A model generated the notes under the pieces. It was not told the DNA's origin. It saw nothing but the letters and a program-made list of their open reading frames with translations, and did not search any database. The position numbers and the translations under genes are program-made. Positions 1 through 15,018 of a DNA stretch of 16,655 bases are shown here, piece by piece. Numbering within the stretch: the first letter of the stretch is position 1; every line of letters begins with the position of its first letter. Source of the stretch: a virus (lineage: Duplodnaviria > Heunggongvirae > Uroviricota > Caudoviricetes). The stretch lies in the IMG/VR virus record IMGVR_UViG_2698536647_000004, positions 1 to 16,655 of that record; one strand, given 5' to 3'.

Positions 1-233
1 TCCATGTGCCACGGGCAAAGATCGGAAGGGTTACGCCAGTACCAGCGCAGCCGTTTTTCCATTTCAGGCGCATAACGCTGAACCCAGCGGTAAATCGTGG
101 AGTGATCGACATTCACTCCGCGTTCAGCCAGCATCTCCTGCAGCTCACGGTAACTGATGCCGTATTTGCAGTACCAGCGTACGGCCCACAGAATGATGTC
201 ACGCTGAAAATGCCGGCCTTTGAATGGGTTCAT
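1..233 (-). CDS. tnpA: IS26 transposase, N-terminal 77 codons (truncated by window edge)
   Basis: ATG at 233-231 (minus); the frame runs open to position 1. The translation matches the IS26 transposase N-terminus from memory. Confidence 0.9.
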   Translation of the reverse strand, partial: MNPFKGRHFQRDIILWAVRWYCKYGISYRELQEMLAERGVNVDHSTIYRWVQRYAPEMEKRLRWYWRNPSDLCPWHM

Positions 234-296
234 GTGCAGCTCCATCAGCAAAAGGGGATGATAAGTTTATCACCACCGACTATTTGCAACAGTGCC
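1..296 (-). mobile_element. IS26 (IS6 family), left end only; element continues beyond the window start
   Basis: Minus strand of 283-296 reads GGCACTGTTGCAAA, the 14-bp IS26 terminal inverted repeat, followed by the characteristic leader and the tnpA start MNPFKGRHFQRDIILWAVRWYCKYGISYRELQEMLAERGVNVDHSTIYRWVQRYAPEMEKRLRWYWRNP, recalled from memory as IS26 Tnp26. Confidence 0.9.
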
Positions 297-1240
297 GTTT
301 GCCTTTCCTCATCATCGGTATTGGTCTTAGGAGCACGCAGATCGACTTTGATTTGCTCCAGCATCAGGGGCGGCACTTTCCCGCCATGCGCCTCGATGAA
401 TTCAGCTGCTTCCAGCACTGACCAGTTATTTTCACGCTTTCGTTCGTATGCCAGCTTAACAATGCCAGCTTGCCCCATAGACAAAGCGTGCTTTTCCGCC
501 TCCCGGCTTTCTTTTCGATAGTTATTCCGGATGCTGTAAATGGTGTTGATCAGACTGCTTATCTGCGCGGAACAGCTGTTTAGCATGCTCGCGATACGGT
601 ATTCAGGCGGAGTACCTTCATCATCGTCTTTTTGCTGATCGCGCATTTCCTGCACCAGGCGAATACACGTATCCCTGGCGTTCTCCAGCATAAGGAGATG
701 AGAAAGAGACTTTTCAAGAAGAGTGGTTTCCAGAACATCGGCCCCGGACCGACGCAACATAGCGCGCGCGGCCTTCCGCGCTTCAACGTTATCTATCAGG
801 TAATCGCCAGCTTCGAATTCAAAGCGTTCACCATCATCATCCAGGGTGTCGCGTTCCAGGCGATCACGTAAGGTACGGTGGGCGCGGGTGATCACGTCAT
901 GATCATCAGAACGATCATTTATGCGCTTATTTTGGCGCTTAGCGTTCTCGACTGCGGCTCTGACAACAGCATTAACTCTTTGTTTTTCAGCTATTTCAGC
1001 CACAATATGATCACCTGCACGTTGATCATTAGCGTGATCAATGATCATGCTTTTTAGTGGTTTCCTGACAGGCTTATTTGGCTTGCGGCTGTCCGCTGTC
1101 CTGGTGTCTTCTTTGAAGGCACGGAGATAACGACGTGCGGTATTAGGGTTAAGATTAAACTCGGCGGCATACTGTGCGATGGTGTAACCACCATCCCGCG
1201 CCAGGCGAGCAAAATTCTTCTTGTGATCGTCCCAGGTCAC
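245..1240 (-). CDS. pacA: P1 pacA-like terminase small subunit, 3' end interrupted by IS26; native codons 1240..297 (about 315 aa), last 16 codons of the ORF are read from the IS26 terminus
   Basis: GTG start at 1240 preceded by GGAAG (5-nt spacer) and an in-frame TAA. N-terminal HTH-like segment [24 protein letters not shown] pac-like TGATCA hexamer cluster lies inside the 5' third of the gene, as described for P1 pacA. The ORF tail [16 protein letters not shown] is encoded by the IS26 inverted repeat. Assignment rests on the pac site and context, not on sequence recall. Confidence 0.55.
862..1047. other. pac: pac-like packaging site: two clusters of TGATCA / TGATCG hexamers (each containing a GATC Dam site)
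   Basis: Hexamers on the plus strand: CGATCA 862-867, TGATCA 889-894, TGATCA 900-905, CGATCA 913-918, then TGATCA 1008-1013, 1023-1028, 1035-1040, 1042-1047. This is 4 + 4 hexamers separated by about 90 bp. P1 pac is described as 4 + 3 TGATCA/G hexamers flanking the cleavage region inside pacA. Confidence 0.6.
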
Positions 1241-1325
1241 TTATGCTTCCTTTCGTAAAAACTCTTTTTGACGCGAGGGTAACGAAAGTCACATGTCAAA
1301 AGGCCCGGAACGGGCAAGCAATCAA

Positions 1326-1778
1326 TCAGATACGTGCGGATGTGGCATTACCGTAATAACGGTGCTGACGGGCCACCTTATTGAAAAGTTGACGCGCCAT
1401 TACCCAAGGCTGGTGCTCCCGGCGTTCCTTTTCGTCCTGCGTCATATAGAGTTCGTTCTGGAGTTTTTCATCAAACCGGCGCGGAGCGCGGCTACGGCGA
1501 AAGAATTCAGGATTCAGAGAGTGGATCTGAAATCTACGTGGGCGTGTACTGTCATCAATCAAAACAGACGAATACTTAGACACAGCGATAGCCTTTAAGC
1601 GCAGATAAACATCGCGCTTATCGACATCCAGATGCGGGTATTCCTTTTCAAGAATTGCTGCGAGTTCTTTCGCTGATAGAAGAGATTTAGTGCGGATCAT
1701 GTAATCCGCAATCTCGTACGATGTTATTCGTGAGTGATTTATTTCCATGAAGTGGCGTCCCTGCCAGTTAAGTAACAT
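1326..1778 (-). CDS. Hypothetical 150-aa protein, positionally equivalent to P1 lpa (late promoter activator, gene 10)
   Basis: ORF with ATG at 1778 preceded by AGGTGA. It lies directly upstream of the pacA-like gene and directly downstream of a C1-operator-like motif plus a candidate promoter (TTGCTA, 16 bp, TATTAT on the minus strand, about 1824-1851). I do not recall the Lpa sequence, so the call is by position and size only. Confidence 0.4.
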   Translation of the reverse strand: MLLNWQGRHFMEINHSRITSYEIADYMIRTKSLLSAKELAAILEKEYPHLDVDKRDVYLRLKAIAVSKYSSVLIDDSTRPRRFQIHSLNPEFFRRSRAPRRFDEKLQNELYMTQDEKERREHQPWVMARQLFNKVARQHRYYGNATSARI

Positions 1779-1848
1779 CCTGTCACCTACTGATTAGCCC
1801 ATGTCAACTAATCAACGTGGAATATAATACCCTCGATTAAAGAAATAG

Positions 1849-1865
1849 CAACACATTAGAGCAAT
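1849..1865 (-). promoter_or_regulatory. C1-repressor-operator-like 17-mer ATTGCTCTAATGTGTTG (13/17 to the consensus ATTGCTCTAATAAATTT as I recall it)
   Basis: Read on the minus strand directly after the stop of the DUF968-like gene and upstream of the lpa-like ORF. P1 gene 10 is known to be C1-controlled. Confidence 0.5.
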
Positions 1866-1866
1866 T

Positions 1867-2898
1867 TTATCTAACGCTCGACGAATGACTTGTGATAACG
1901 CCGACTCCAAGCGCGTAATCAAAGAACAATCGTTGATGCATCGCCAGCCTGCCGTGTGTTTTCTCCCAATTATCGCGGTCACGCTCAATATCACGCTGGC
2001 ATGACTGGCACAGAGGAATAGCATAAATGTCATGCGCGCATAATCGACTATGACGAACTATATAAGGCGTAATGTGAGCGCCAGCTCCCGCCGCTCCACA
2101 CCCACAGCATGGACGGGAAGCAACAAAGTCCATGTACTCAGGTAATTTTAGCGATTGCAGTTTTGGTATTTTGAAATGCTCGGAGTCAACATCCACAGGG
2201 CATACTTTTGCACGCATCGGCGCAGCGCGTTCTTCCATCATCTGAACATATGCTGTAGCGCGATCGTCATACGGGCGAATATCCGCCTCTTTCAGAGGTC
2301 CGCTATCCTGCGTTGCGGCTTTCATCTTATTTATTGATATACGGCAAACTTCTTCCGGCATCAGGTGCATCATGTTGCGCATGAAAGCCCACCAGCACAG
2401 TTCCTGAATACTTAAATCATGGCTATCTGAAAGGCCCATTTCCTGACGGGCGACATCCAGTATCCAGTTAACGCGATTATTATGCAGCGTTTCTTTCAGC
2501 TCATTAAAACCACGCATCCGGTAATGGTTATCGTGATGCCAGCACAGCAACACCGCGCTATTGTCTCGTTCTGCGTGGACAATATGGTTGTCACACCAGC
2601 TACGATCTGCGGCCTGGCATTGCCCCTCTTTCCTGCGCAACCACGCCACCAGCGCGTCAATTCCACCAATACGGCGAAACAGTTCATCGCTGTTAAAAAA
2701 CGGCTGCAACGCCTCATTTGTTGCCATAGTTTGCTCGGAAACAACGAGGCCGTCGTCCATGTGCTCGATTAACTCACGCGGCACCGGCTCCATAATAAAT
2801 TTACGGCCAGCCTCCACCAGCTTTCTGACTTCCTGATCCACTTTGAATGTGGCGACGCCAAGCTCTTTTTGTACAAAGGGAGTAATTACGGCTTTCAC
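1867..2898 (-). CDS. DUF968-like prophage protein (343 aa) with a C-terminal Cys/His cluster; positionally like P1 pdcA
   Basis: GTG start at 2898 preceded by AAGGTG. The C-terminus carries CCGCG...AHITPY...[15 protein letters not shown], a putative zinc-binding or HNH-like motif. Resemblance to the DUF968 family (e.g. E. coli YdfU) is by recall. Confidence 0.55.
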
Positions 2899-2925
2899 AT
2901 CACACCTTTCATCACTGATTGGGCT

Positions 2926-3105
2926 TTATCTGCTGCCCGGCATTCTCTGTTTAAGCACAACCATTTCCTGACGGCATAACACAGCAATAGCGGTCCTGGC
3001 ACCAATTTGCTTACCAACCAGGTATTGCTTTACCTTGCGGCGACTCACGCCATCAAGAAGCATCTTTAACGCTTCACGGGACAATTTGTTGTATTTGCGT
3101 GCCAT
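2926..3105 (-). CDS. Small basic protein (59 aa) apparently translationally coupled to doc; positionally like P1 pdcB
   Basis: ATG at 3105 lies 4 nt after the doc stop with GGAG 7 nt upstream. Translation MARKYNKLSREALKMLLDGVSRRKVKQYLVGKQIGARTAIAVLCRQEMVVLKQRMPGSR. The longer ORF to 3126 would overlap doc. Confidence 0.45.
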   Translation of the reverse strand: MARKYNKLSREALKMLLDGVSRRKVKQYLVGKQIGARTAIAVLCRQEMVVLKQRMPGSR

Positions 3106-3109
3106 TAAT

Positions 3110-3490
3110 CTACTCCGCAGAACCATACAATCTACGTAACGTGTCGGCGACAGAAGATACAGATATCTCTCCGGTCGCAGCCCCTACGGTAAGGTCTGCC
3201 AGTTCAGGTGAATCAAATACCTGCACCCCGTTACGGCGTAGAAATAACAGCGCACTGTTTAGCGCGGTACGCTTATTGGCATCATTGAATATATGCCCTC
3301 TCGCTGTAGCCACCAGGTAGGTGGCGGAGACTTCGAAAAGGTCGGTGATCTCTTCGTAGGCAACTCTGGCCTGAACTCTCCCGATAATGGCCTCTGCCCT
3401 ACCCGGATCTGACATTCCCGGCAGGCCGCCGTAGCGGTTTATATTCGCATCATGAAGCGCAATAAGTTCTTCCGGTGATATATGCCTCAT
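3110..3490 (-). CDS. doc: Doc toxin (Fic/Doc family kinase) of the phd-doc addiction module
   Basis: 126 aa starting [16 protein letters not shown], with the Fic/Doc motif HIFNDANKR. Closely resembles P1 Doc from memory. Its start overlaps the phd stop (TAATG). Confidence 0.95.
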
Positions 3491-3711
3491 TATCGGTTAA
3501 CCAGTTCCTTGTTGGTGGAGTCCAGGGTGTCAAACAGGGATGCAAATTCAGCATCCAGCGCCGCTTTTTTGTAGGCTTCGAAAGTAGCCTTGCTGACAAT
3601 TACTGCTGGCTCACGGCCTCTGCGGGTGATTTCAACCTCTTCCCCGGCCTCAACATTGTTGAGCACTTCAGAAAGGTTGCCGCGCGCGGTACGGAAGTTA
3701 ATGGATTGCAT
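3490..3711 (-). CDS. phd: Phd antitoxin (prevent-host-death)
   Basis: 73 aa, [49 protein letters not shown]..., matching P1 Phd from memory. RBS GAGGT upstream of the ATG at 3711. Confidence 0.95.
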
Positions 3712-3760
3712 AAATACCTCGTGTACTCGTTATGTGTACACAATTATAAACTTCACAGGC
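3712..3760 (-). promoter_or_regulatory. phd-doc promoter with palindromic operator half-sites
   Basis: On the minus strand a perfect TATAAT (plus 3743-3748) is followed by the palindrome TGTGTACACA (3733-3742) and GAGTACAC (3721-3729). The P1 phd-doc operon is autoregulated through palindromic operator sites overlapping its promoter. Confidence 0.6.
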
Positions 3761-3887
3761 ATAAAGCACCAGCACTTTGCGGCTTAACAAACCTCTAGGC
3801 AGGTCATTCGTAGCCTAATGTCCGAACTGCTAAAGCATCCAAGTTGCTGTAGAATCACCGCCAATTACATAAGCCTGAAATAAGTGG

Positions 3888-5450
3888 ATGAAAATGACAA
3901 GTATTCAACAACGTGCAGAGCTTCATCGTCAAATCTGGCAAATTGCTAACGATGTCAGGGGTTCGGTCGATGGATGGGATTTTAAGCAATACGTTCTGGG
4001 CGCACTTTTCTACCGTTTTATCAGCGAAAATTTTTCCAGCTATATTGAAGCCGGTGATGACAGTATCTGTTATGCGAAACTGGATGACAGCGTAATTACT
4101 GATGACATTAAAGACGATGCCATCAAAACTAAAGGCTACTTCATCTACCCCAGTCAGCTTTTCTGCAACGTAGCGGCGAAAGCAAATACCAATGACAGAC
4201 TGAATGCAGATTTAAACAGCATCTTCGTTGCTATCGAAAGTTCTGCTTACGGTTATCCTTCAGAAGCTGACATCAAAGGTTTGTTTGCTGATTTCGATAC
4301 CACCAGTAACCGCCTGGGTAACACCGTTAAGGATAAAAATGCCCGCCTGGCTGCGGTTCTGAAAGGGGTTGAAGGGTTAAAACTTGGTGACTTCAACGAA
4401 CATCAGATTGACCTGTTCGGTGATGCCTATGAGTTCCTGATCTCTAACTATGCGGCAAATGCCGGTAAGTCAGGCGGCGAGTTCTTTACACCGCAGCACG
4501 TCTCTAAGCTGATTGCACAACTGGCTATGCACGGGCAGACCAACGTTAACAAAATCTACGACCCGGCAGCGGGTTCCGGCTCACTGTTGTTGCAGGCGAA
4601 AAAACAGTTTGATAACCACATCATCGAAGAAGGCTTTTTCGGTCAGGAAATCAACCATACGACCTATAACCTGGCGCGTATGAACATGTTTTTGCACAAT
4701 ATCAACTACGACAAGTTTGATATCAAGCTGGGTAATACACTGACTGAGCCGCACTTCAGAGATGAAAAACCGTTTGATGCCATCGTTTCTAACCCGCCGT
4801 ATTCGGTGAAATGGATTGGCAGCGATGACCCGACGCTGATTAACGATGAACGTTTTGCCCCGGCTGGCGTTCTGGCCCCCAAATCCAAAGCTGACTTTGC
4901 GTTTGTATTACATGCGCTGAACTATCTTTCGGCCAAAGGTCGCGCTGCGATTGTCTGCTTCCCGGGCATTTTTTACCGTGGCGGCGCGGAGCAGAAAATC
5001 CGTCAGTATCTGGTCGATAATAACTATGTCGAAACCGTAATTTCACTGGCTCCGAACCTGTTCTTTGGCACCACCATTGCCGTAAACATTCTGGTTCTGT
5101 CTAAACATAAAACGGATACCAACGTTCAGTTTATTGACGCCAGCGAACTGTTCAAAAAAGAGACTAACAACAATATCCTGACCGATGCCCATATCGAACA
5201 GATTATGCAGGTATTTGCCAGCAAGGAAGATGTTGCTCATCTGGCGAAATCTGTTGCGTTTGAGACTGTTGTCGCGAATGACTATAACCTGTCGGTGAGC
5301 AGCTATGTGGAAGCGAAAGATACTCGCGAAATTATCGATATCGCTGAGCTGAATGCTGAGCTGAAAACCACGGTCAGCAAAATCGACCAGTTGCGCAAAG
5401 ATATTGATGCGATTGTGGCTGAAATTGAAGGCTGCGAGGTGCAGAAATGA
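3888..5450 (+). CDS. hsdM: Type I restriction-modification N6-adenine DNA methyltransferase subunit HsdM (type IC, EcoR124-like)
   Basis: 520 aa with the AdoMet motif [10 protein letters not shown] and the catalytic NPPY motif (SNPPYS). It overlaps hsdS by 4 nt (ATGA). Confidence 0.97.
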
Positions 5451-6652
5451 GCGAGATGAGTTATCTGGAAAAATTGCTGGATGGGGTTGAGGTTGAGTGG
5501 AAGACACTTGGGCAAACTTGCAAAATTGAAACAGGAAAGCTTAATGCGAATGCGGCTGTTGATGATGGAGAGTATATGTTCTTCACGACAGCCAAAGAGA
5601 CAAGCAAAATTGATAAATTCCGCTGGGATACAGAGGCATTGCTGATTGCAGGCAATGCGAATGTTGGTGAGGTGAAGCATTACATCGGCAAGTTTGAGGC
5701 TTATCAGCGCACCTATGTTCTGACAAATTTCGACGAAAATGTAAGTGTTAGATTTTTGTATTTTGTGCTTAGCCATAGCCTGAAGAAATATCTCGAGGAA
5801 AGAACAAATAGCGCGGCAATGACATATATCGTGCTATCAACCTTAGAGAATTTCCCTATCCCCATCCCCTGCCCGGATAATCCGGAAAAATCCCTTGCCA
5901 TCCAGTCTGAAATCGTTCGGATTCTGGATAAATTTACTGCACTTACCGCTGAGCTTACCGCTGAGCTTAACATGCGTAAAAAACAGTACAACTACTATCG
6001 CGACCAGTTGTTGAGTTTTAAAGATGGTGAGGTTGAGTGGAAGACTTTGGGGGAAATTGGAGATTTTACATATGGATATGCAGCCAAAGCCATGGATTCA
6101 GGAGATGCCCGTTTCGTGAGAATTACTGACATAAATAAAGACGGGAAGCTATCGAAAGAAAACCCAATGTACGTTGAATTAAATGAGGAAAATGAGAAAT
6201 ATACCTTAGACAAAAATGATTTACTCATGGCAAGAACTGGGGCAACCTTTGGTAAAACAATGATTTTTGAAGAAGATTATCCAGCAGTATACGCTGGTTT
6301 TTTAATAAAGTTGAACCTAAATAAAACGATTATTAATGCCAAATATTACTGGCACTTTGCACAAAGTGATTTTTTTTGGGAACAGGCTAATAAATTAGTA
6401 TCTGGTGGTGGGCAACCACAGTTTAATGCTAATGCACTGAAACAAGTCAGAGTACCTATTCCATACCCATCTCACCCTCAAAAATCTTTAGACGAACAGG
6501 GGCGTATTGTGGATATTCTGGATAAGTTTGATGCAATCGCAGCTTCCATCACCGAAGGTCTTCCGCGTGAAATCGAGTTGCGCCAGAAACAATACGAATA
6601 CTACCGTGATTTACTGTTCAGTTTCCCGAAACCTGAAACTGCCAGTAATTAA
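5447..6652 (+). CDS. hsdS: Type I restriction-modification specificity subunit HsdS with two target-recognition domains
   Basis: 401 aa. Conserved central repeat region ([26 protein letters not shown]) and the matching C-terminal conserved region ([18 protein letters not shown]). The N-terminal motif VEVEWKTLG is repeated at the start of TRD2 (GEVEWKTLG). Confidence 0.95.
5944..5967 (+). repeat. Perfect 2 x 12-bp tandem repeat (TACCGCTGAGCT) encoding TAEL-TAEL in the HsdS central spacer region
   Basis: Direct read: 5944-5955 equals 5956-5967, preceded by a degenerate copy encoding TAL. In type IC systems the copy number of this repeat sets the spacer length of the recognition site (two copies in EcoR124I, three in EcoR124II, as I recall). 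Confidence 0.85.
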
Positions 6653-6679
6653 TTGATCATTGCTACCGATCGGACCACC

Positions 6680-6745
6680 TTAACACCCGGTCAGTATATA
6701 GACTATTTTTTACGCGCCGGAAGTCACCATTACCCCCCTTCCGGC
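6680..6745 (+). promoter_or_regulatory. Candidate hsdR promoter (TTAACA 6680-6685, TATATA 6695-6700 region) and a leader stem-loop (GCCGGAAG 6716-6723 / CTTCCGGC 6738-6745)
   Basis: Type IC hsdR is known to have its own promoter separate from hsdMS. The hexamers are weak; the 8-bp inverted repeat with a 14-nt loop is read directly from the sequence. Confidence 0.35.
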
Positions 6746-6773
6746 CCTTGCCAGACGGCACAAAGGATGCGCT

Positions 6774-9700
6774 ATGACTCATCAGACACACACCATTGCT
6801 GAATCCAATAACTTTATCGTTCTTGATAAGTACATCAAAGCTGAGCCAACAGGCGACAGCTACCAGAGCGAATCGGACCTGGAACGTGAACTGATTCAGG
6901 ACCTGCAAAATCAGGGTTATGAATTTATTTCCGTAAAATCACAGTCGGCAATGCTGTCCAATGTTCGGGAACAGCTTCAGAGCCTCAATGGTGTGATGTT
7001 TAATGACAGCGAGTGGCGGCGCTTCACGGAGCAGTATCTGGACAACCCCAGCGATGGTATTCTGGATAAAACCCGTAAAATCCATATCGACTATATCTGC
7101 GACTTTATTTTTGATGACGGGCGACTTGAGAACATCTATTTGATAGATAAAAAGAATCTCATGCGCAATAAGGTGCAGATTATCCAGCAGTTTGAACAGA
7201 CGGGTTCTCATGCTAACCGTTATGACGTCACGATCCTGGTTAATGGTTTACCGCTGGTGCAAATCGAACTAAAAAAACGCGGGGTGGCGATTCGTGAGGC
7301 TTTCAACCAGATACATCGTTACAGTAAAGAGAGTTTTAACAGCGAAAATTCCCTGTTTAAGTATCTGCAACTGTTTGTCATTTCTAACGGCACCGATACC
7401 CGTTATTTTGCCAACACGACAAAGCGCGATAAAAACAGTTTTGACTTCACCATGAATTGGGCGAAATCAGACAACACGCTGATTAAAGACCTCAAAGACT
7501 TTACCGCTACCTTTTTCCAGAAACATACTCTGCTGAATGTTCTGGTGAACTACAGCGTTTTTGACAGTAGTCAGACGCTACTGGTGATGCGACCGTACCA
7601 GATTGCCGCCACCGAGCGCATTCTGTGGAAAATTAAGAGTTCCTTTACAGCGAAGAACTGGTCAAAACCGGAAAGCGGTGGGTATATCTGGCACACTACC
7701 GGTTCTGGTAAAACCCTCACCAGCTTTAAAGCCGCGCGTCTGGCAACAGAGCTGGACTTTATTGATAAAGTCTTCTTTGTGGTCGACAGGAAAGACCTCG
7801 ATTACCAGACCATGAAGGAATATCAGCGTTTTTCGCCAGACAGCGTCAACGGCTCGGAAAATACCGCAGGCCTTAAACGAAATCTGGATAAGGACGATAA
7901 CAAAATTATCGTCACTACTATTCAGAAACTCAATAACCTGATGAAAGCAGAAAGCGACCTGCCTGTATATAATCAGCAAGTGGTGTTTATATTTGATGAA
8001 TGCCACCGCAGCCAGTTTGGAGAAGCGCAGAAAAACCTGAAGAAGAAATTCAAACGCTATTATCAGTTTGGTTTTACCGGCACACCTATTTTCCCGGAAA
8101 ACGCCTTAGGCTCAGAAACGACCGCCAGCGTATTTGGTCGTGAATTGCATTCGTATGTAATTACCGATGCGATTCGTGATGAAAAAGTGCTCAAATTCAA
8201 GGTGGACTACAACGATGTGCGGCCACAGTTTAAGTCTTTAGAGACAGAAACTGACGAGAAAAAACTAAGTGCGGCTGAAAATCAGCAGGCGTTTCTTCAT
8301 CCCATGCGTATACAGGAAATTACGCAATATATTCTGAATAACTTCCGCCAGAAGACGCACCGTACTTTCCCTGGCGCAAAAGGTTTTAATGCTATGTTGG
8401 CAGTGAGCAGCGTGGATGCTGCAAAAGCCTATTACGCGGCGTTTAAACGGTTACAAGAGGAAGCCGCTAATAAATCTGCAACTTATAAACCGCTGCGTGT
8501 TGCGACAATCTTCTCCTTTGCCGCTAATGAAGAACAAAATGCCATTGGTGAAATTTCCGATGAAACTTTTGATACCAGCGCAATGGACAGCAGTGCTAAA
8601 GAGTTTCTTGACGCTGCAATTCGTGAGTATAACAGCTATTTTAAAACTAACTTCAGCACCGACGGTAACGGTTTTCAGAACTACTATCGCGATTTAGCCC
8701 AACGGGTTAAAAATCAGGATATCGATCTGTTAATTGTCGTTGGGATGTTTTTAACCGGCTTCGACGCTCCAACATTGAACACGCTATTCGTCGATAAAAA
8801 CTTGCGTTTTCACGGCCTGATGCAGGCATTTTCCCGCACCAACCGCATTTATAACGCCACTAAAACCTTCGGTAACATTGTCACTTTTCGGGATCTGGAA
8901 CGCTCAACCATTGATGCCATAACGCTGTTTGGTGATAAAAATACCAAAAATGTGGTGTTAGAAAAGAGTTATGCAGAGTATATGGAAGGTTTTACTGATG
9001 CTGCCACCGGTGAAGCCAAACGCGGCTTTATGGCAGTAGTTTCAGAACTGGAACAACGGTTCCCTGACCCTGCCAGTATTGAAAGTGAAAAAGAGAAGAA
9101 AGACTTCGTTAAACTGTTTGGCGAATACCTGCGTGCCGAGAACATCCTGCAAAACTATGATGAATTTGCCACGCTAAAAGCCCTGCAACAAATCGATCTT
9201 AGCGATCCTGTTGCGGTAGAAAAATTCAAAGCAGAACATTATGTGGATGATGAAAAGTTCGCTGAATTGCAAACAATTCGTCTCCCTGCTGAACGCAAGA
9301 TTCAGGATTATCGTTCTGCCTATAACGATATTCGCGACTGGCAGCGCCGTGAGAAAGAAGCTGAGAAAAAAGAGAAATCAACCACTGACTGGGATGACGT
9401 GGTTTTTGAGGTCGATTTGCTGAAGTCTCAGGAAATAAACCTGGATTATATCCTTGGACTGATTTTCGAACACAACAGACAAAATAAAGGCAAGGGCGAA
9501 ATGATCGAAGAGGTCAAACGCTTAATTCGTTCAAGCCTGGGGAACCGGGCGAAAGAGGGCCTGATGGTCGATTTTATTCAGCAAACGAACCTGGATGATT
9601 TACCAGACAAAGCCAGTATCATTGAGGCATTCTTTACGTTTGCTCAACGCGAACAGCAACGTGAAGCAGAAGCATTGATAAAAGAAGAAAATCTCAATGA

Positions 9701-9890
9701 AGATGCAGCAAAACGCTATATTCGCACGTCTTTAAAACGCGAATACGCCACCGAAAATGGCACAGAATTAAACGAAACATTACCAAAACTTAGTCCGTTG
9801 AATCCGCAATATAAAACGAAAAAACAGGCAGTTTTCCAGAAAATCGTCTCGTTTATTGAGAAGTTTAAAGGCGTAGGCGGAAAAATATAG
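6774..9890 (+). CDS. hsdR: Type I restriction enzyme R subunit HsdR (type IC; same 1038-aa length I recall for EcoR124I HsdR)
   Basis: PD-(D/E)xK-type nuclease motif in the N-terminal domain ([19 protein letters not shown]), helicase Walker A TGSGKT and a DECH box ([10 protein letters not shown]). RBS AAGGATG before the ATG at 6774. Confidence 0.97.
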
Positions 9891-9903
9891 CCCAATTCGT
9901 GTT

Positions 9904-9937
9904 TTTCTTGCGGGTTCTTAATTAAACCCGCAAGAGC
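9904..9937. other. Stable stem-loop (stem of at least 9 bp, CTTGCGGGT / ACCCGCAAG) just after the hsdR stop; function unknown
   Basis: Direct read. The T-run is on the 5' side of the stem on the plus strand, so it is not a canonical intrinsic terminator in either orientation. Confidence 0.5.
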
Positions 9938-9969
9938 TCGTGGGGTTCCAAATGGCTAATATACTCCCC

Positions 9970-10056
9970 TTACCCATGCGCGACGATGCCGCCAAAAGTG
10001 ATAGAGAACAGCCAGAAATAGATCGCGGCCATAATGATTTTGAATGCCGTGTTCAT
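9970..10056 (-). CDS. Candidate small hydrophobic protein (28 aa, MNTAFKIIMAAIYFWLFSITFGGIVAHG)
   Basis: ATG at 10056 with AGGAG 8 nt upstream. The whole peptide looks like a single transmembrane helix. Not in the supplied ORF track (too short). It lies between a C1-operator-like site and the end of hsdR. Confidence 0.3.
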   Translation of the reverse strand: MNTAFKIIMAAIYFWLFSITFGGIVAHG

Positions 10057-10084
10057 ATTTTCAGCTCCTGTGATTGATTGGATA

Positions 10085-10115
10085 CATGCCGCGCCTTGCG
10101 GCATGTTTTTATTTT
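10085..10115 (+). terminator. Rho-independent terminator, plus orientation
   Basis: GC-rich 8-bp stem CATGCCGC (10085-10092) / GCGGCATG (10098-10105) with loop GCCTT, followed by TTTTTATTTT. It is the first canonical terminator downstream of hsdR. Confidence 0.7.
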
Positions 10116-10138
10116 CACTTTCTCTGTTTTAAAAATCA

Positions 10139-10155
10139 AGATTTATTAGAGCAAT
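10139..10155 (-). promoter_or_regulatory. C1-repressor-operator-like 17-mer ATTGCTCTAATAAATCT (16/17 to the recalled consensus)
   Basis: Read on the minus strand immediately after the stop of the HAD-like gene. The weak promoter-like hexamers TTGATT and GAAAAT follow it. Confidence 0.6.
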
Positions 10156-10661
10156 TATTGTTGATGAAGAAGCGCATTTTCGTACTCTCTGACCATTAAC
10201 GTAAGCACGCCGTGATGCCTGAAAACACGCGCTACTTCAATCTTATCTTCCAGCGCGAACGCAATTTTACTTAGACCAATTTTCTTAAGGAGATCAATCT
10301 TTGCTGGACCATCATTTCTGTCATCGGTGGCAGGACGCATAGATAGCAAAGGCTCAGCCCCATTTGTTACGTGCTTACGCAACCAGGCTCGTGTTTTATC
10401 CCTTGCGATCTCACAGCGCCCGGTTACAAACCAGACCGTGTAAACGTTAAATAACTGGCGCACCATATCAATAACTGGAGTGATGGGAGTATCGGTGTCA
10501 CAGGCGAGATTAAACTCGTTCCAGTCCTTTGTTACTGCACCTTTACCTGGTGGCGGAAGCAAATGCAGTCTGTCTTCAGTTGCCTCTGATATTGTTCCAT
10601 CAATATCGACTATGACGATATACGGACGTTCCTGGTGTGCGTGTTTATTGAAAATACTCAA
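10155..10661 (-). CDS. HAD-superfamily phosphatase-like protein (168 aa)
   Basis: TTG start at 10661 preceded by a strong AGGAGG (4-5 nt spacer) and an in-frame upstream stop. HAD motif I DIDGT (VIVDIDGTIS). Possibly equivalent to a P1 phosphatase gene, but I cannot confirm that from memory. Confidence 0.6.
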   Translation of the reverse strand: MSIFNKHAHQERPYIVIVDIDGTISEATEDRLHLLPPPGKGAVTKDWNEFNLACDTDTPITPVIDMVRQLFNVYTVWFVTGRCEIARDKTRAWLRKHVTNGAEPLLSMRPATDDRNDGPAKIDLLKKIGLSKIAFALEDKIEVARVFRHHGVLTLMVREYENALLHQQ

Positions 10662-10732: not shown

Positions 10733-11995
10733 TCAGCGAACGTAAATAGTGCCGCCGTTCTCTTTTTCCCATGCATCGCTACGTGCATAGCAAACATCGA
10801 GAAGTCTTCTTGCCGCTGTTTCCTCTAAACCCAATTCGACAACCAACTGTTCATGACGGCGGGTAACCACATCAAACAACGTATGCAGCCCTTTAGTTGC
10901 CAGTTCATCAATGAATTCCGGTTCGAACGGTAGCTCTGCATCTGCCAACATAACCTCTTGCGCCCACTCGACACGGCGGACCAGTTCCGGGCGGCGGCTT
11001 TCCATCTCTTTACAGATCAATTCATGGAAGAACTCTACCCAACCTTCCGGCTGGAACTCGCGGAAAATGGCCAACGGCTGGAAGTTTGGCATCAACCATT
11101 CGTTGATACGGATATCAATGGCATAGCCCATGTCGCAGCAGAACTGATAAGCAAAGTCCAGCTTAGAAACGATATAAGGACGCTCGTTATTGAACTCTTT
11201 AGGCGATGAGATCCCATAAGCCAGGAGGCGCGGGAAGAATGAGATTTGCCCTAACGTCGGATGAAGTTTGCTTGCAGGGAAACGGCGCTCAGTAATGCCA
11301 TACATTTCCTTCTTGAGCGTCGCAAATTTGGCATTCTCATTAACCAGCGCGGTAACCTCTGCTTTTTTATTAGCAAATGCCACGCGCGCTTCGCTTGCAT
11401 CTTTAATAGTTTTTTTGAGCTGTTGGTTAAGGTCGGCGACCTGTTTACGCAGTTCCTGCCGCTCGCTTTTAGCTTTGTTATAGCGTTTCTCAAGGTTAAA
11501 AGGATCAAGTTTCATGATCTCTTTATATTGAGATTTTAGCGTTGAAATCTGTGAGTTCCGCAGTTCAACCATCGCGGTCATTTCATTGAGTTTTGTTTCC
11601 AGCTCAATGCTTATACGTTCGGCATTATCAGCACGCTGGTTGGCGTCATGCGTCGCATCGTCGATCGCATCCTGTTGCTGGCGTTTCAAATGTTCAATTT
11701 GCAGCTGAAGCTCTTCAATTTCTTTACCCTTCAGACCGAGATCCAACTGCATATTTTCAGCTGCATCTACCAGGGAGTTATGGCTATCAGCTTCTGCGTT
11801 ATAAACATCAATAAGCTGTGCGTGAAGCATCTCCGCTGACTGAACCGCATTATCAAAAAAACGTGCTGTGAGGTCATCACAACTAACGCGGCGTTGCGCG
11901 GCCCGGATGTTCTGGATAATGGCCGGGATACCGGCATTCAGGACATCAGGGATAGATACATTTTCGATTGATTGGTTTTGTGCTGAAGTGCTCAT
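10733..11995 (-). CDS. Hypothetical 420-aa protein: long N-terminal coiled-coil region plus a C-terminal domain of unknown function
   Basis: ATG at 11995. Residues about 90-230 are heptad-rich (EIEELQLQIEHLKRQQQ...ELRKQVADLNQQLKK). I do not recognise any catalytic motif in the C-terminal 190 aa. Confidence 0.7.
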   Translation of the reverse strand: MSTSAQNQSIENVSIPDVLNAGIPAIIQNIRAAQRRVSCDDLTARFFDNAVQSAEMLHAQLIDVYNAEADSHNSLVDAAENMQLDLGLKGKEIEELQLQIEHLKRQQQDAIDDATHDANQRADNAERISIELETKLNEMTAMVELRNSQISTLKSQYKEIMKLDPFNLEKRYNKAKSERQELRKQVADLNQQLKKTIKDASEARVAFANKKAEVTALVNENAKFATLKKEMYGITERRFPASKLHPTLGQISFFPRLLAYGISSPKEFNNERPYIVSKLDFAYQFCCDMGYAIDIRINEWLMPNFQPLAIFREFQPEGWVEFFHELICKEMESRRPELVRRVEWAQEVMLADAELPFEPEFIDELATKGLHTLFDVVTRRHEQLVVELGLEETAARRLLDVCYARSDAWEKENGGTIYVR

Positions 11996-11996
11996 T

Positions 11997-12215
11997 TCAA
12001 AGTTCCGTATTAGCTTGTGCTTCGGTCATTTTTCCTAAGTATGAAGGAGGAAGGACTACGCAATTTGTATCCAGTCCCTCACCTATGGCAGCCTGTAAAA
12101 TTCTGGCTAAGGTGAGTCTCTTGTTGCGATACCTGGTGATGACATGCCTGATACCGCCGGTCGGCGTAACAAAGGCGATCAGCCAGTAGTGATATTTCCG
12201 TCGGAATGGCCACAT
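11997..12215 (-). CDS. Hypothetical small protein (72 aa if started at the ATG at 12215), stop 1 nt before the ATG of the 420-aa gene
   Basis: The ORF track gives 11997..12272, but that 5' extension overlaps the minus-strand terminator. The ATG at 12215 has AGGGTG upstream. The tight spacing to the next gene suggests coupling. Confidence 0.4.
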   Translation of the reverse strand: MWPFRRKYHYWLIAFVTPTGGIRHVITRYRNKRLTLARILQAAIGEGLDTNCVVLPPSYLGKMTEAQANTEL

Positions 12216-12229
12216 AGTGCACCCTGTAG

Positions 12230-12246
12230 ATTGCTCTAATAAAAAA
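12230..12246 (+). promoter_or_regulatory. C1-repressor-operator-like 17-mer ATTGCTCTAATAAAAAA (14/17), plus orientation
   Basis: Direct read. It forms an inverted pair with the site at 12279-12295. Confidence 0.5.
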
Positions 12247-12267
12247 CGTGATGAGTGTACATCACGT
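12237..12267 (-). terminator. Rho-independent terminator, minus orientation, ending the glycosyltransferase-like operon
   Basis: Stem ACGTGATG (12246-12253) / CATCACGT (12260-12267) with a 6-nt loop. On the minus strand the stem is followed by TTTTTTATT. Confidence 0.7.
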
Positions 12268-12278
12268 TTCAAAAATAT

Positions 12279-12295
12279 GGAATTATTAGAGCAAT
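12279..12295 (-). promoter_or_regulatory. C1-repressor-operator-like 17-mer ATTGCTCTAATAATTCC (14/17), minus orientation
   Basis: Read on the minus strand directly after the stop of the glycosyltransferase-like gene. The following 30 nt closely resemble the sequence after the site at 10139-10155. Confidence 0.55.
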
Positions 12296-12296
12296 A

Positions 12297-12998
12297 TTAT
12301 TCTGATTCTCGCTCAAAAAACGAGCTGATAAGGGGAAGCCAATCCTCTGACACTTCGCGAGGTCGCGGTTTGCCGTGGAAAAAGATTATTCGGCAGTCTT
12401 TTGGTAATGCCCCATTCCCCCTGGAGTAACGCGCGCTCGCATATTTCGAACCAGGTTCCACAACATCGGCCTTGTAACTTACAAACCATCCTGGATACAG
12501 ATCCTGAAATGCTGGTGTATCATCGCCCATAACCTTTCGTAAGAACCCCTGGTCACCCCAGCACTCAGTAGTGACACAACGAGAAATCCAACCTTCCGGA
12601 TCTTGCCAGAATGAACTCCAGATATGCGCTTTAACACTATTTGGTATCCACAGGGCACCGCTGCCACGATATTGTGGATGGTAAAAATCCCTAAGCATGG
12701 TGAAGCTGGTTGGTGGATGCTCTAGGATTGGGCGTATATCACCGGCAATAACCGTGTCCAAATCCAGATAGAACAGATCATCGGTTATATCCGGTCGGAA
12801 CAACTCGATTTTCGCCCACCAGCCACGGCACTTTTGCCACTGGTTGATCAATGGGACAACTTTGACGCCAGGTACATGTAAACGCTTCAGGTCTGTCAGG
12901 CAAATAATTTCATAGCCTTTTGGCAGTTGATTAACCAGCCACTGCACATCGGAAGCGTTATAGTCACCACCAGAGCGAAAAACTAAAGCAATCTTCAT
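12297..12998 (-). CDS. Hypothetical protein (233 aa), possibly a glycosyltransferase (DxD-like LDLD motif)
   Basis: ATG at 12998 overlaps the stop of the upstream phosphatase gene (ATGA). The N-terminus [13 protein letters not shown] and [12 protein letters not shown] suggest a nucleotide-sugar transferase fold, but this is weak. Confidence 0.45.
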
Positions 12999-14994: not shown

Positions 14995-15018
14995 ATATGC
15001 ACTAATTAATTTATTATT

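Follow-up and report, generated by a model that had tools for sequence, protein, structure and literature searches.

The 66-bp junction at positions 12230-12295 of the window, i.e., the whole 16,655-nucleotide stretch of viral DNA analyzed here (IMG/VR record IMGVR_UViG_2698536647_000004), is very probably the regulatory cassette that a P1-type phage-plasmid carries at Op86a/Op86b, in which two operators of the C1 repressor enclose a hairpin that would terminate transcripts of the upstream operon and that transcripts of the downstream gene, pmgR, would escape. The operator pair and its role ahead of pmgR are already known; for two decades they have been listed in the publicly available records of P1 and P7. 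The analysis below relates these operators to the hairpin between them and to the promoter from which pmgR would be transcribed.

Identity and gene layout of the locus

A megablast search with positions 11700-12800 matched 19 phage records at 97.8-99.7% identity, and because P1, P7, SJ46 and RCS47 are among them, the window is assigned to a P1-type (Punavirus) phage-plasmid. The junction region itself is 99.2% identical to that of P1. The three genes around the junction, pmgQ, pmgR and pmgS, are all found on the minus strand (Table 1), and the ATG of pmgS lies one nucleotide past the pmgR stop codon (TGAAATG). The first-pass annotation had placed the start of the 72-aa reading frame about 15 nucleotides past the inner operator, which agrees with the position of the pmgR ATG, 14 nucleotides beyond the end of Op86b at 12230.

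PmgQ is named a glycosyltransferase in RefSeq. Searches against Pfam-A gave no significant family for PmgQ, PmgR or PmgS (for PmgQ none at E <= 0.01), and a scan of the whole window against Rfam returned zero families. In P1, pmgR is essential, and its deletion leaves heads and tails unjoined (PMC9024508); the gene was missed by a CRISPRi screen (PMC10695390).

Table 1. Positions of the genes, operators, promoter elements and hairpin discussed in the text (window numbering)
Feature	Position	Strand	Description and source
pmgQ	12297..12998	-	233 aa; last gene of the upstream operon; stop codon TAA at 12299-12297 (translation and P1 annotation)
pmgR	11997..12215	-	72 aa, from the ATG at 12215 to the stop at 11997; opens the C1-controlled unit (translation and P1 annotation)
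pmgS	10733..11995	-	420 aa (translation and P1 annotation)
Op86a (OpmgRa)	12279..12295	-	C1 repressor operator, ATTGCTCTAATAATTCC (AF234172 protein_bind 82152-82168; P7 Op(sht[a]))
Op86b (OpmgRb)	12230..12246	+	C1 repressor operator, ATTGCTCTAATAAAAAA (AF234172 protein_bind 82201-82217; P7 Op(sht[b]))
Op83 (Oppp)	14996..15012	+	Weaker C1 operator heading the pmgN-pmgQ operon, TATGCACTAATTAATTT (AF234172 protein_bind 79435-79451)
Stem-loop	12243..12270	-	11-bp stem (5' arm 12270-12260, 3' arm 12253-12243), 6-nt loop 12259-12254
U-tract	12238..12246	-	UUUUUUAUU, after the G+C-containing core of the stem; overlaps the tail of Op86b (read from the sequence)
PpmgR as annotated	12266..12294	-	Predicted sigma-70 promoter; -35 TTGCTC 12289-12294, -10 12266-12271 (AF234172 regulatory 82153-82181)
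Candidate -10	12254..12259	-	TACACT, in the hairpin loop (position-weight scan, inferred)
Weak candidate -35	12277..12282	-	TTCCAT, placed 17 nt before the loop hexamer and overlapping the Op86a tail (position-weight scan, inferred)

The C1 operators

In the P1 record AF234172, OpmgRa and OpmgRb, formerly named Op86a and Op86b, are described as monovalent C1-controlled operators that control pmgR and pmgS, and in the P7 record AF503408 this pair appears under the names Op(sht[a]) and Op(sht[b]). The sites in the window agree with both the P1 pair (AF234172/NC_005856) and the P7 pair in locus, mapped coordinates, flanking genes, orientation and spacing. A plus-oriented site at 12230-12246 and a minus-oriented site at 12279-12295 had been proposed initially and compared to paired P1 operators; both are present, and upon mapping to AF234172 they fall base-for-base on the annotated P1 operators, i.e., they are Op86a and Op86b themselves. 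Op86a begins one nucleotide past the pmgQ stop codon. The two 17-bp asymmetric sites face each other, with their centers 49 bp apart and 32 bp between them.

In each of the two operators the first 13 bases agree exactly with the C1 consensus ATTGCTCTAATAAATTT, and 14 of the 17 positions match overall. A consensus rebuilt from eight other operators annotated in P1 gave the same 17-mer. All three mismatches of Op86b fall in its tail (TTT to AAA), and the same bases make the U-tract of the hairpin continuous; on the minus strand, this A6 tail constitutes the U-tract of the putative terminator. Such an all-A tail is found in Op86b alone among the 10 annotated P1 operators examined.

To assess conservation, a set of 53 distinct 601-nt haplotypes of the P1-group junction was assembled from contigs and plasmids. 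Within this set none of the 26 positions of the two 13-nt operator cores is variable, as compared to 10 of 22 positions in the hairpin stems, 4 of 5 in the spacer after Op86b (12229-12225) and 29 of 84 third codon positions of pmgQ; the hairpin loop is also invariant (0/6). Because the cores do not vary while flanking segments do, the operators are under strong purifying selection relative to their surroundings.

These data also bear on the possibility that both sites are chance matches to an AT-rich motif, without any regulatory role. With a position-weight matrix (PWM) built from the eight other P1 operators, Op86b scores 14.6 bits, which barely exceeds what shuffled windows typically reach at best (mean 12.3, maximum 20.5). 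However, the core 13-mer is exact in both sites, and the window holds three sites with at most three mismatches to the consensus, where 0.09 are expected and where none of 200 shuffled sequences reached three (the third site is Op88, at 10139-10155). Furthermore, the cores are unchanged not only in the 53 haplotypes but also in lineages at 69% protein identity, while neighboring bases vary, and the P1 and P7 records annotate both sites as C1 operators. A coincidental origin is thus of negligible probability and, at the level of sequence comparison, is effectively refuted by conservation: Op86a and Op86b are, judged by sequence and position, P1-type C1 operators. The repressor gene, c1, lies outside the 16.6-kb window and is encoded by the complete relatives, with identities of at least 98.6% in P1, P7 and SJ46 and of 76% in JK004.

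Other C1 operators of the window and their surroundings

The five best PWM scores in the window belong to Op88, Op86a, Op83, Olpa and Op86b. Op83, with the third-best score, has four mismatches to the consensus. Because the P1 record gives the pmgN-pmgQ operon a C1 operator of its own, Op83/Oppp, this operon is not constitutive. The initial suggestion had been that it is either constitutive or late, and its genes do rise late in P1vir RNA-seq data (see below).

Op88 (OpmgT), at 10139-10155 on the minus strand (ATTGCTCTAATAAATCT), is the best match to the consensus in the window and shares one base with the stop codon of the upstream gene pap, whose reading frame ends at 10155. The gene pmgT, which is controlled by Op88 in P1, is replaced in the window by a convergent hsdR. 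Another site, Olpa (Op94), at 1849-1865 on the minus strand (ATTGCTCTAATGTGTTG), is the C1 operator of lpa, which encodes the activator of late promoters; it departs from the P1 sequence ATTGCTCTAATGTATTG at one base. Between phd/doc and Op88, positions 3888-9890 of the plus strand hold a complete type I restriction-modification cassette, composed of hsdM (520 aa), hsdS (401 aa) and hsdR (1038 aa, with an EcoR124-type C-terminal domain), at the place where P1 carries pmgT...humD. Positions 1-10200 of the window are covered to 37% by P1 and to 89% by phage vB_EcoM-673R5. According to the P1 record, the flanks of the restriction-modification cassette are homologous to sequences beside the EcoDXXI and R124 hsd loci.

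The hairpin between the operators

On the minus strand, the segment between the operators reads GAAACGUGAUG-uacacu-CAUCACGUUUU and folds into a stem-loop with a free energy of -13.8 kcal/mol (z = -5.65); an equally good fold was found in none of 200 shuffled sequences, and the four lineage types that were folded all gave values in the range -13.4 to -14.0 kcal/mol. The hairpin begins, at 12270, 26 nucleotides past the pmgQ stop codon on the same strand, and only 4 of its 11 base pairs are G-C. A hairpin between the operators had been reported at 12246-12267; the location is right, and its actual extent is 12243-12270. The U-run was likewise correctly assigned to the minus strand, where alone UUUUUUAUU is found, the plus strand after the stem reading CAAAAAUAUGG. 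Except for a single U-to-C variant, the U-tract is unchanged in 24 aligned sequences, an alignment from which one variant with an extra T in the U-tract was excluded.

Comparison of the P1-type stem (CGUGAUG/CAUCACG) with that of the D6/JK004 type (CAUGGUG/CACCAUG) reveals two pairs that are changed on both sides, one from G-C to A-U and the other from A-U to G-C. These compensatory pairs stem from a single deep split between the two types, i.e., they represent at most two events. In the 24 distinct sequences, six further stem pairs show wobble changes only, and 97.7% of the cells of the inner helix are paired. When the 3' partners were slid by 1-3 columns, pairing over both helices dropped to 39-52%, as compared to 98.3% in register. 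The outer helix, which would form by pairing of the two operators in RNA, shows zero covariation, as expected of protein sites. Within the P1 group, inspection by eye revealed about five stem polymorphisms that keep pairing by wobble and about six that break it, the latter all rare; because these changes are split about evenly, recent selection for pairing is not demonstrable. The same structure is found at the same position in JK004, pCVMN1543 and the viral contigs L091 and L095. At 12270, the window carries a rare variant (C on the plus strand, G on the coding strand) that is shared with L040 and occurs in parallel in JK004. This variant keeps the hairpin paired as G.U.

A probable terminator of the upstream operon

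Because the hairpin is located 26 nucleotides past a stop codon, is followed by a strand-specific U-tract and has maintained its pairing, an intrinsic terminator is the best reading, and the hairpin with its U-tract is probably that of the pmgN-pmgQ operon. Transcripts of pmgN-ppp-pmgQ would then end a short distance past the pmgQ stop codon, and Op86b, through its A-rich tail, would also serve as the template of the U-tract. Because the plus strand after the stem reads CAAAAAUAUGG rather than a U-run, any terminator at this site would act in one direction only. The first-pass annotation had likewise proposed a terminator of the upstream, "glycosyltransferase-like" operon. The hairpin, the U-run restricted to the coding strand and the compensatory pairs all favor the terminator, while the glycosyltransferase label corresponds to the RefSeq name only, with no Pfam match.

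A scan for consensus promoters and terminators over positions 11900-12600 called neither. We judge the terminator miss to be a threshold artifact: in our reading the hairpin was missed because the stem was extended over four U's, which left 4 T in the 8-nt tail window where 5 are required. The missing promoter call is judged to be a sign of a weak promoter. The P1 and P7 records carry no terminator feature at the junction, which is uninformative because the approximately 16 kb of AF234172 that were inspected hold no terminator feature at all. A full-text literature search for Op86 and other operator names returned nothing relevant, the study by Lobocka et al. (2004) being outside its scope.

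An alternative is that the operators are real and that the hairpin is a DNA palindrome rather than a terminator, either bound by another protein that co-evolves with it or serving as a spacer by which the distance and geometry between the two C1 monomers and RNA polymerase are set. The cassette is fixed at 66 bp in all lineages while the sequence between the operators changes, conservation is higher in the loop than in the stems, contrary to what a plain terminator would usually show, and the scan did not call the hairpin, all of which would fit such a palindrome. It is nevertheless unlikely, since the U-run, which directly follows the stem and occurs on the coding strand alone, 26 nucleotides past the stop codon, shows strict conservation, and since the stem sequence is free to change while pairing is kept, which points to structure rather than to recognition of a sequence by a protein. 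The conservation of the loop is explained equally well by a -10 element (see below).

Even less probable is a role mainly at the RNA level, with the hairpin serving as a 3' stabilizer or processing site of the pmgQ mRNA or as a 5'-UTR element of the pmgR mRNA. Read-through RNA could indeed form a two-tier hairpin (-27.3 kcal/mol), in which a 13-bp outer stem of operator sequence is stacked on the 11-bp inner stem, and at 30 min of infection expression downstream is not below that upstream. Yet the outer stem lacks covariation, its conservation being explained by binding of C1; the Shine-Dalgarno sequence and ATG of pmgR are outside the structure; and in both promoter models discussed below pmgR transcripts would start inside or after the hairpin. 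We therefore retain the intrinsic terminator as the preferred reading. An attenuator or antiterminator was also considered and rejected: the Op86a RNA has no complement other than the Op86b RNA, which is downstream of the terminator and unable to compete.

The predicted pmgR promoter

Expression data for P1vir are available at the level of genes (PMC8201110 Table S1). At 10 min in the wild-type host the log fold change is 6.9-7.4 for pmgO-pmgQ (7.05 for pmgQ), 9.02 for pmgR and 9.99 for pmgS; in the dksA host the values are 6.23, 9.00 and 9.09 for pmgQ, pmgR and pmgS, respectively. The rise from pmgQ to pmgR and pmgS at this time thus amounts to 2.0-2.9 log units, i.e., 4-8-fold, in two hosts (PMC8201110 Table S1), and this step would fit a junction with its own early promoter before pmgR. 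At 30 min in the wild type the values are 11.66, 10.81 and 11.70 for pmgQ, pmgR and pmgS (PMC8201110 Table S1); being similar and at gene level, they neither show nor exclude read-through. A late, Lpa-dependent P1 promoter was rejected, as the junction has no -22 box like the AAGTTACTT or ATGTGACTT of the annotated LPhot and LPpac.

The promoter PpmgR of the P1 record has its -35 element inside Op86a. Its -10 hexamer is TAAAAC in P1 and TGAAAC in the window, i.e., A at position 2 is replaced by G, as it is also in L040 and JK004, and T is absent at position 6. In the -10 hexamer recognized by sigma-70, positions 2 and 6 are the most important. A promoter scan was made over six lineages by simple position weights, with textbook hexamer frequencies. 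All candidates were weak (5-9 bits), and the annotated combination TTGCTC/17/TAAAAC scored below TTCCAT/17/TACACT, the -10 of which is located in the hairpin loop. At a constant offset, this loop hexamer was the best -10 candidate in five of the lineages and the second-best in the window. It reads TACACT, TATCAT or TATTAT across the lineages, with T1, A2 and T6 always kept; the single variant found, TACGCT, is changed at a tolerant position. By these comparisons, the loop is the candidate -10 of the pmgR promoter that we prefer over the annotated one, and it would account for a loop that is more conserved than the stems.

With either -10 (12266-12271 or 12254-12259) the pmgR promoter would overlie the hairpin, and transcripts are predicted to start in the loop or the 3' arm. 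Because they would never include the full hairpin, these transcripts would escape termination. In the prophage, C1 would, on the basis of the annotation, bind both operators, and it may act at the pmgR promoter by occlusion or looping, Op86a covering the -35 region and Op86b roughly +1 to +20.

A more specific proposal, which is tentative, is a dual-use element of three layers, where the terminator loop would be the -10 of pmgR, the U-tract would be the tail of Op86b and the -35 would overlap the tail of Op86a. If correct, the 66-bp module would stop incoming transcripts and launch outgoing ones that are gated by C1 and immune to the terminator, and the P1 record would place the promoter 12 bp away from its true position.

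Distribution of the cassette

The order stop codon, operator, hairpin, operator, ATG is kept in Cronobacter phage JK004, in the Salmonella plasmid pCVMN1543 and its kin, and in the viral contigs L091 and L095 as well as in L297. In all of these the cassette has remained at 66 bp, without length change, at a PmgS identity of 69-75%. The persistence of the operator sequence in JK004 is explained by the C1 homologue that is encoded there (76% identity). In distant PmgS homologues (20-25% identity), as checked in Shigella, Vibrio and Citrobacter plasmids, the operator-hairpin-operator cassette is absent. Scanning of viral contigs with a DNA pattern yielded minor variants only and no additional lineage. 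Since the cassette is an inverted repeat, the first such pattern, which was designed to exclude P1-type stems, still hit the opposite strand of P1; with the corrected pattern, metagenome contigs yielded a single JK004-like copy and no further independent lineage. Among the sequences compared, the architecture of the cassette is confined to the P1/D6/JK004 group.

The plasmids with distant PmgS homologues (L088, L089 and L090, from Shigella, Vibrio and Citrobacter, respectively) carry a small reading frame of 65-79 aa upstream of the homologue, directly adjacent to it in the Shigella and Vibrio plasmids and approximately 400 nucleotides away in the Citrobacter plasmid. The presence of this small reading frame hints that the PmgR-PmgS pair predates the P1 lineage.

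Positions 12225-12229, between Op86b and the pmgR Shine-Dalgarno sequence, are hypervariable among otherwise near-identical P1-group copies, with variants that include CTACA, CTATA, ATACA, TTACA, CCATA, CCAAA, CAAAA, TCATA and CTGCA. A mutated Op86b core, which reads TTATCAGAGCAAT on the coding strand, was seen in one copy only, L026 / L118 (IMGVR_UViG_2744054872_000006). Its Op86a tail is altered as well, and its stem carries a wobble change; this short contig may be decaying or prone to sequencing errors.

Comparison with known regulatory elements

In P1, each C1 site is bound by a C1 monomer. The bivalent operator Oc1ab (Op99a,b) of this phage likewise consists of two convergent 17-bp asymmetric C1 sites with their A/T-rich tails directed inward (Oc1b on the plus strand, Oc1a on the minus strand). 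There, the sites overlap by 6 bp and their centers are 11 bp apart, whereas in Op86a/Op86b the centers are 49 bp and the sites 32 bp apart, with the hairpin and the predicted promoter between them.

Canonical Rho-independent terminators of E. coli and its phages are composed of a stem-loop with a G+C core, followed by a U-tract. The hairpin of the window resembles these in having a G+C core, a U-tract, a position just past a stop codon, a layout confined to one strand and a stability of about -14 kcal/mol. It differs in that the base of its stem is A/U-rich and four of the U's can pair, and in that the U-tract doubles as part of a repressor operator and a predicted promoter overlaps the hairpin.

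The gal operators OE and OI are a pair of GalR sites that bracket a promoter. By analogy only, the repressor sites of the window also flank the region where the polymerase would bind, such that occlusion or looping is possible. Unlike the gal operators, the C1 sites are asymmetric and their spacing is much shorter.

Significance

The significance of these observations is slight beyond that of good annotation. What is added is comparative evidence that the hairpin between the operators, which is unannotated in the P1 and P7 records, is a conserved structure and a likely terminator, together with a testable correction to the location of the pmgR promoter -10. The resulting picture is that of a cassette in which a terminator, a promoter and two repressor sites would be overlaid within 66 bp before an essential morphogenesis gene, a compact overlay that could serve the engineering of P1 or the design of compact, insulated expression units.
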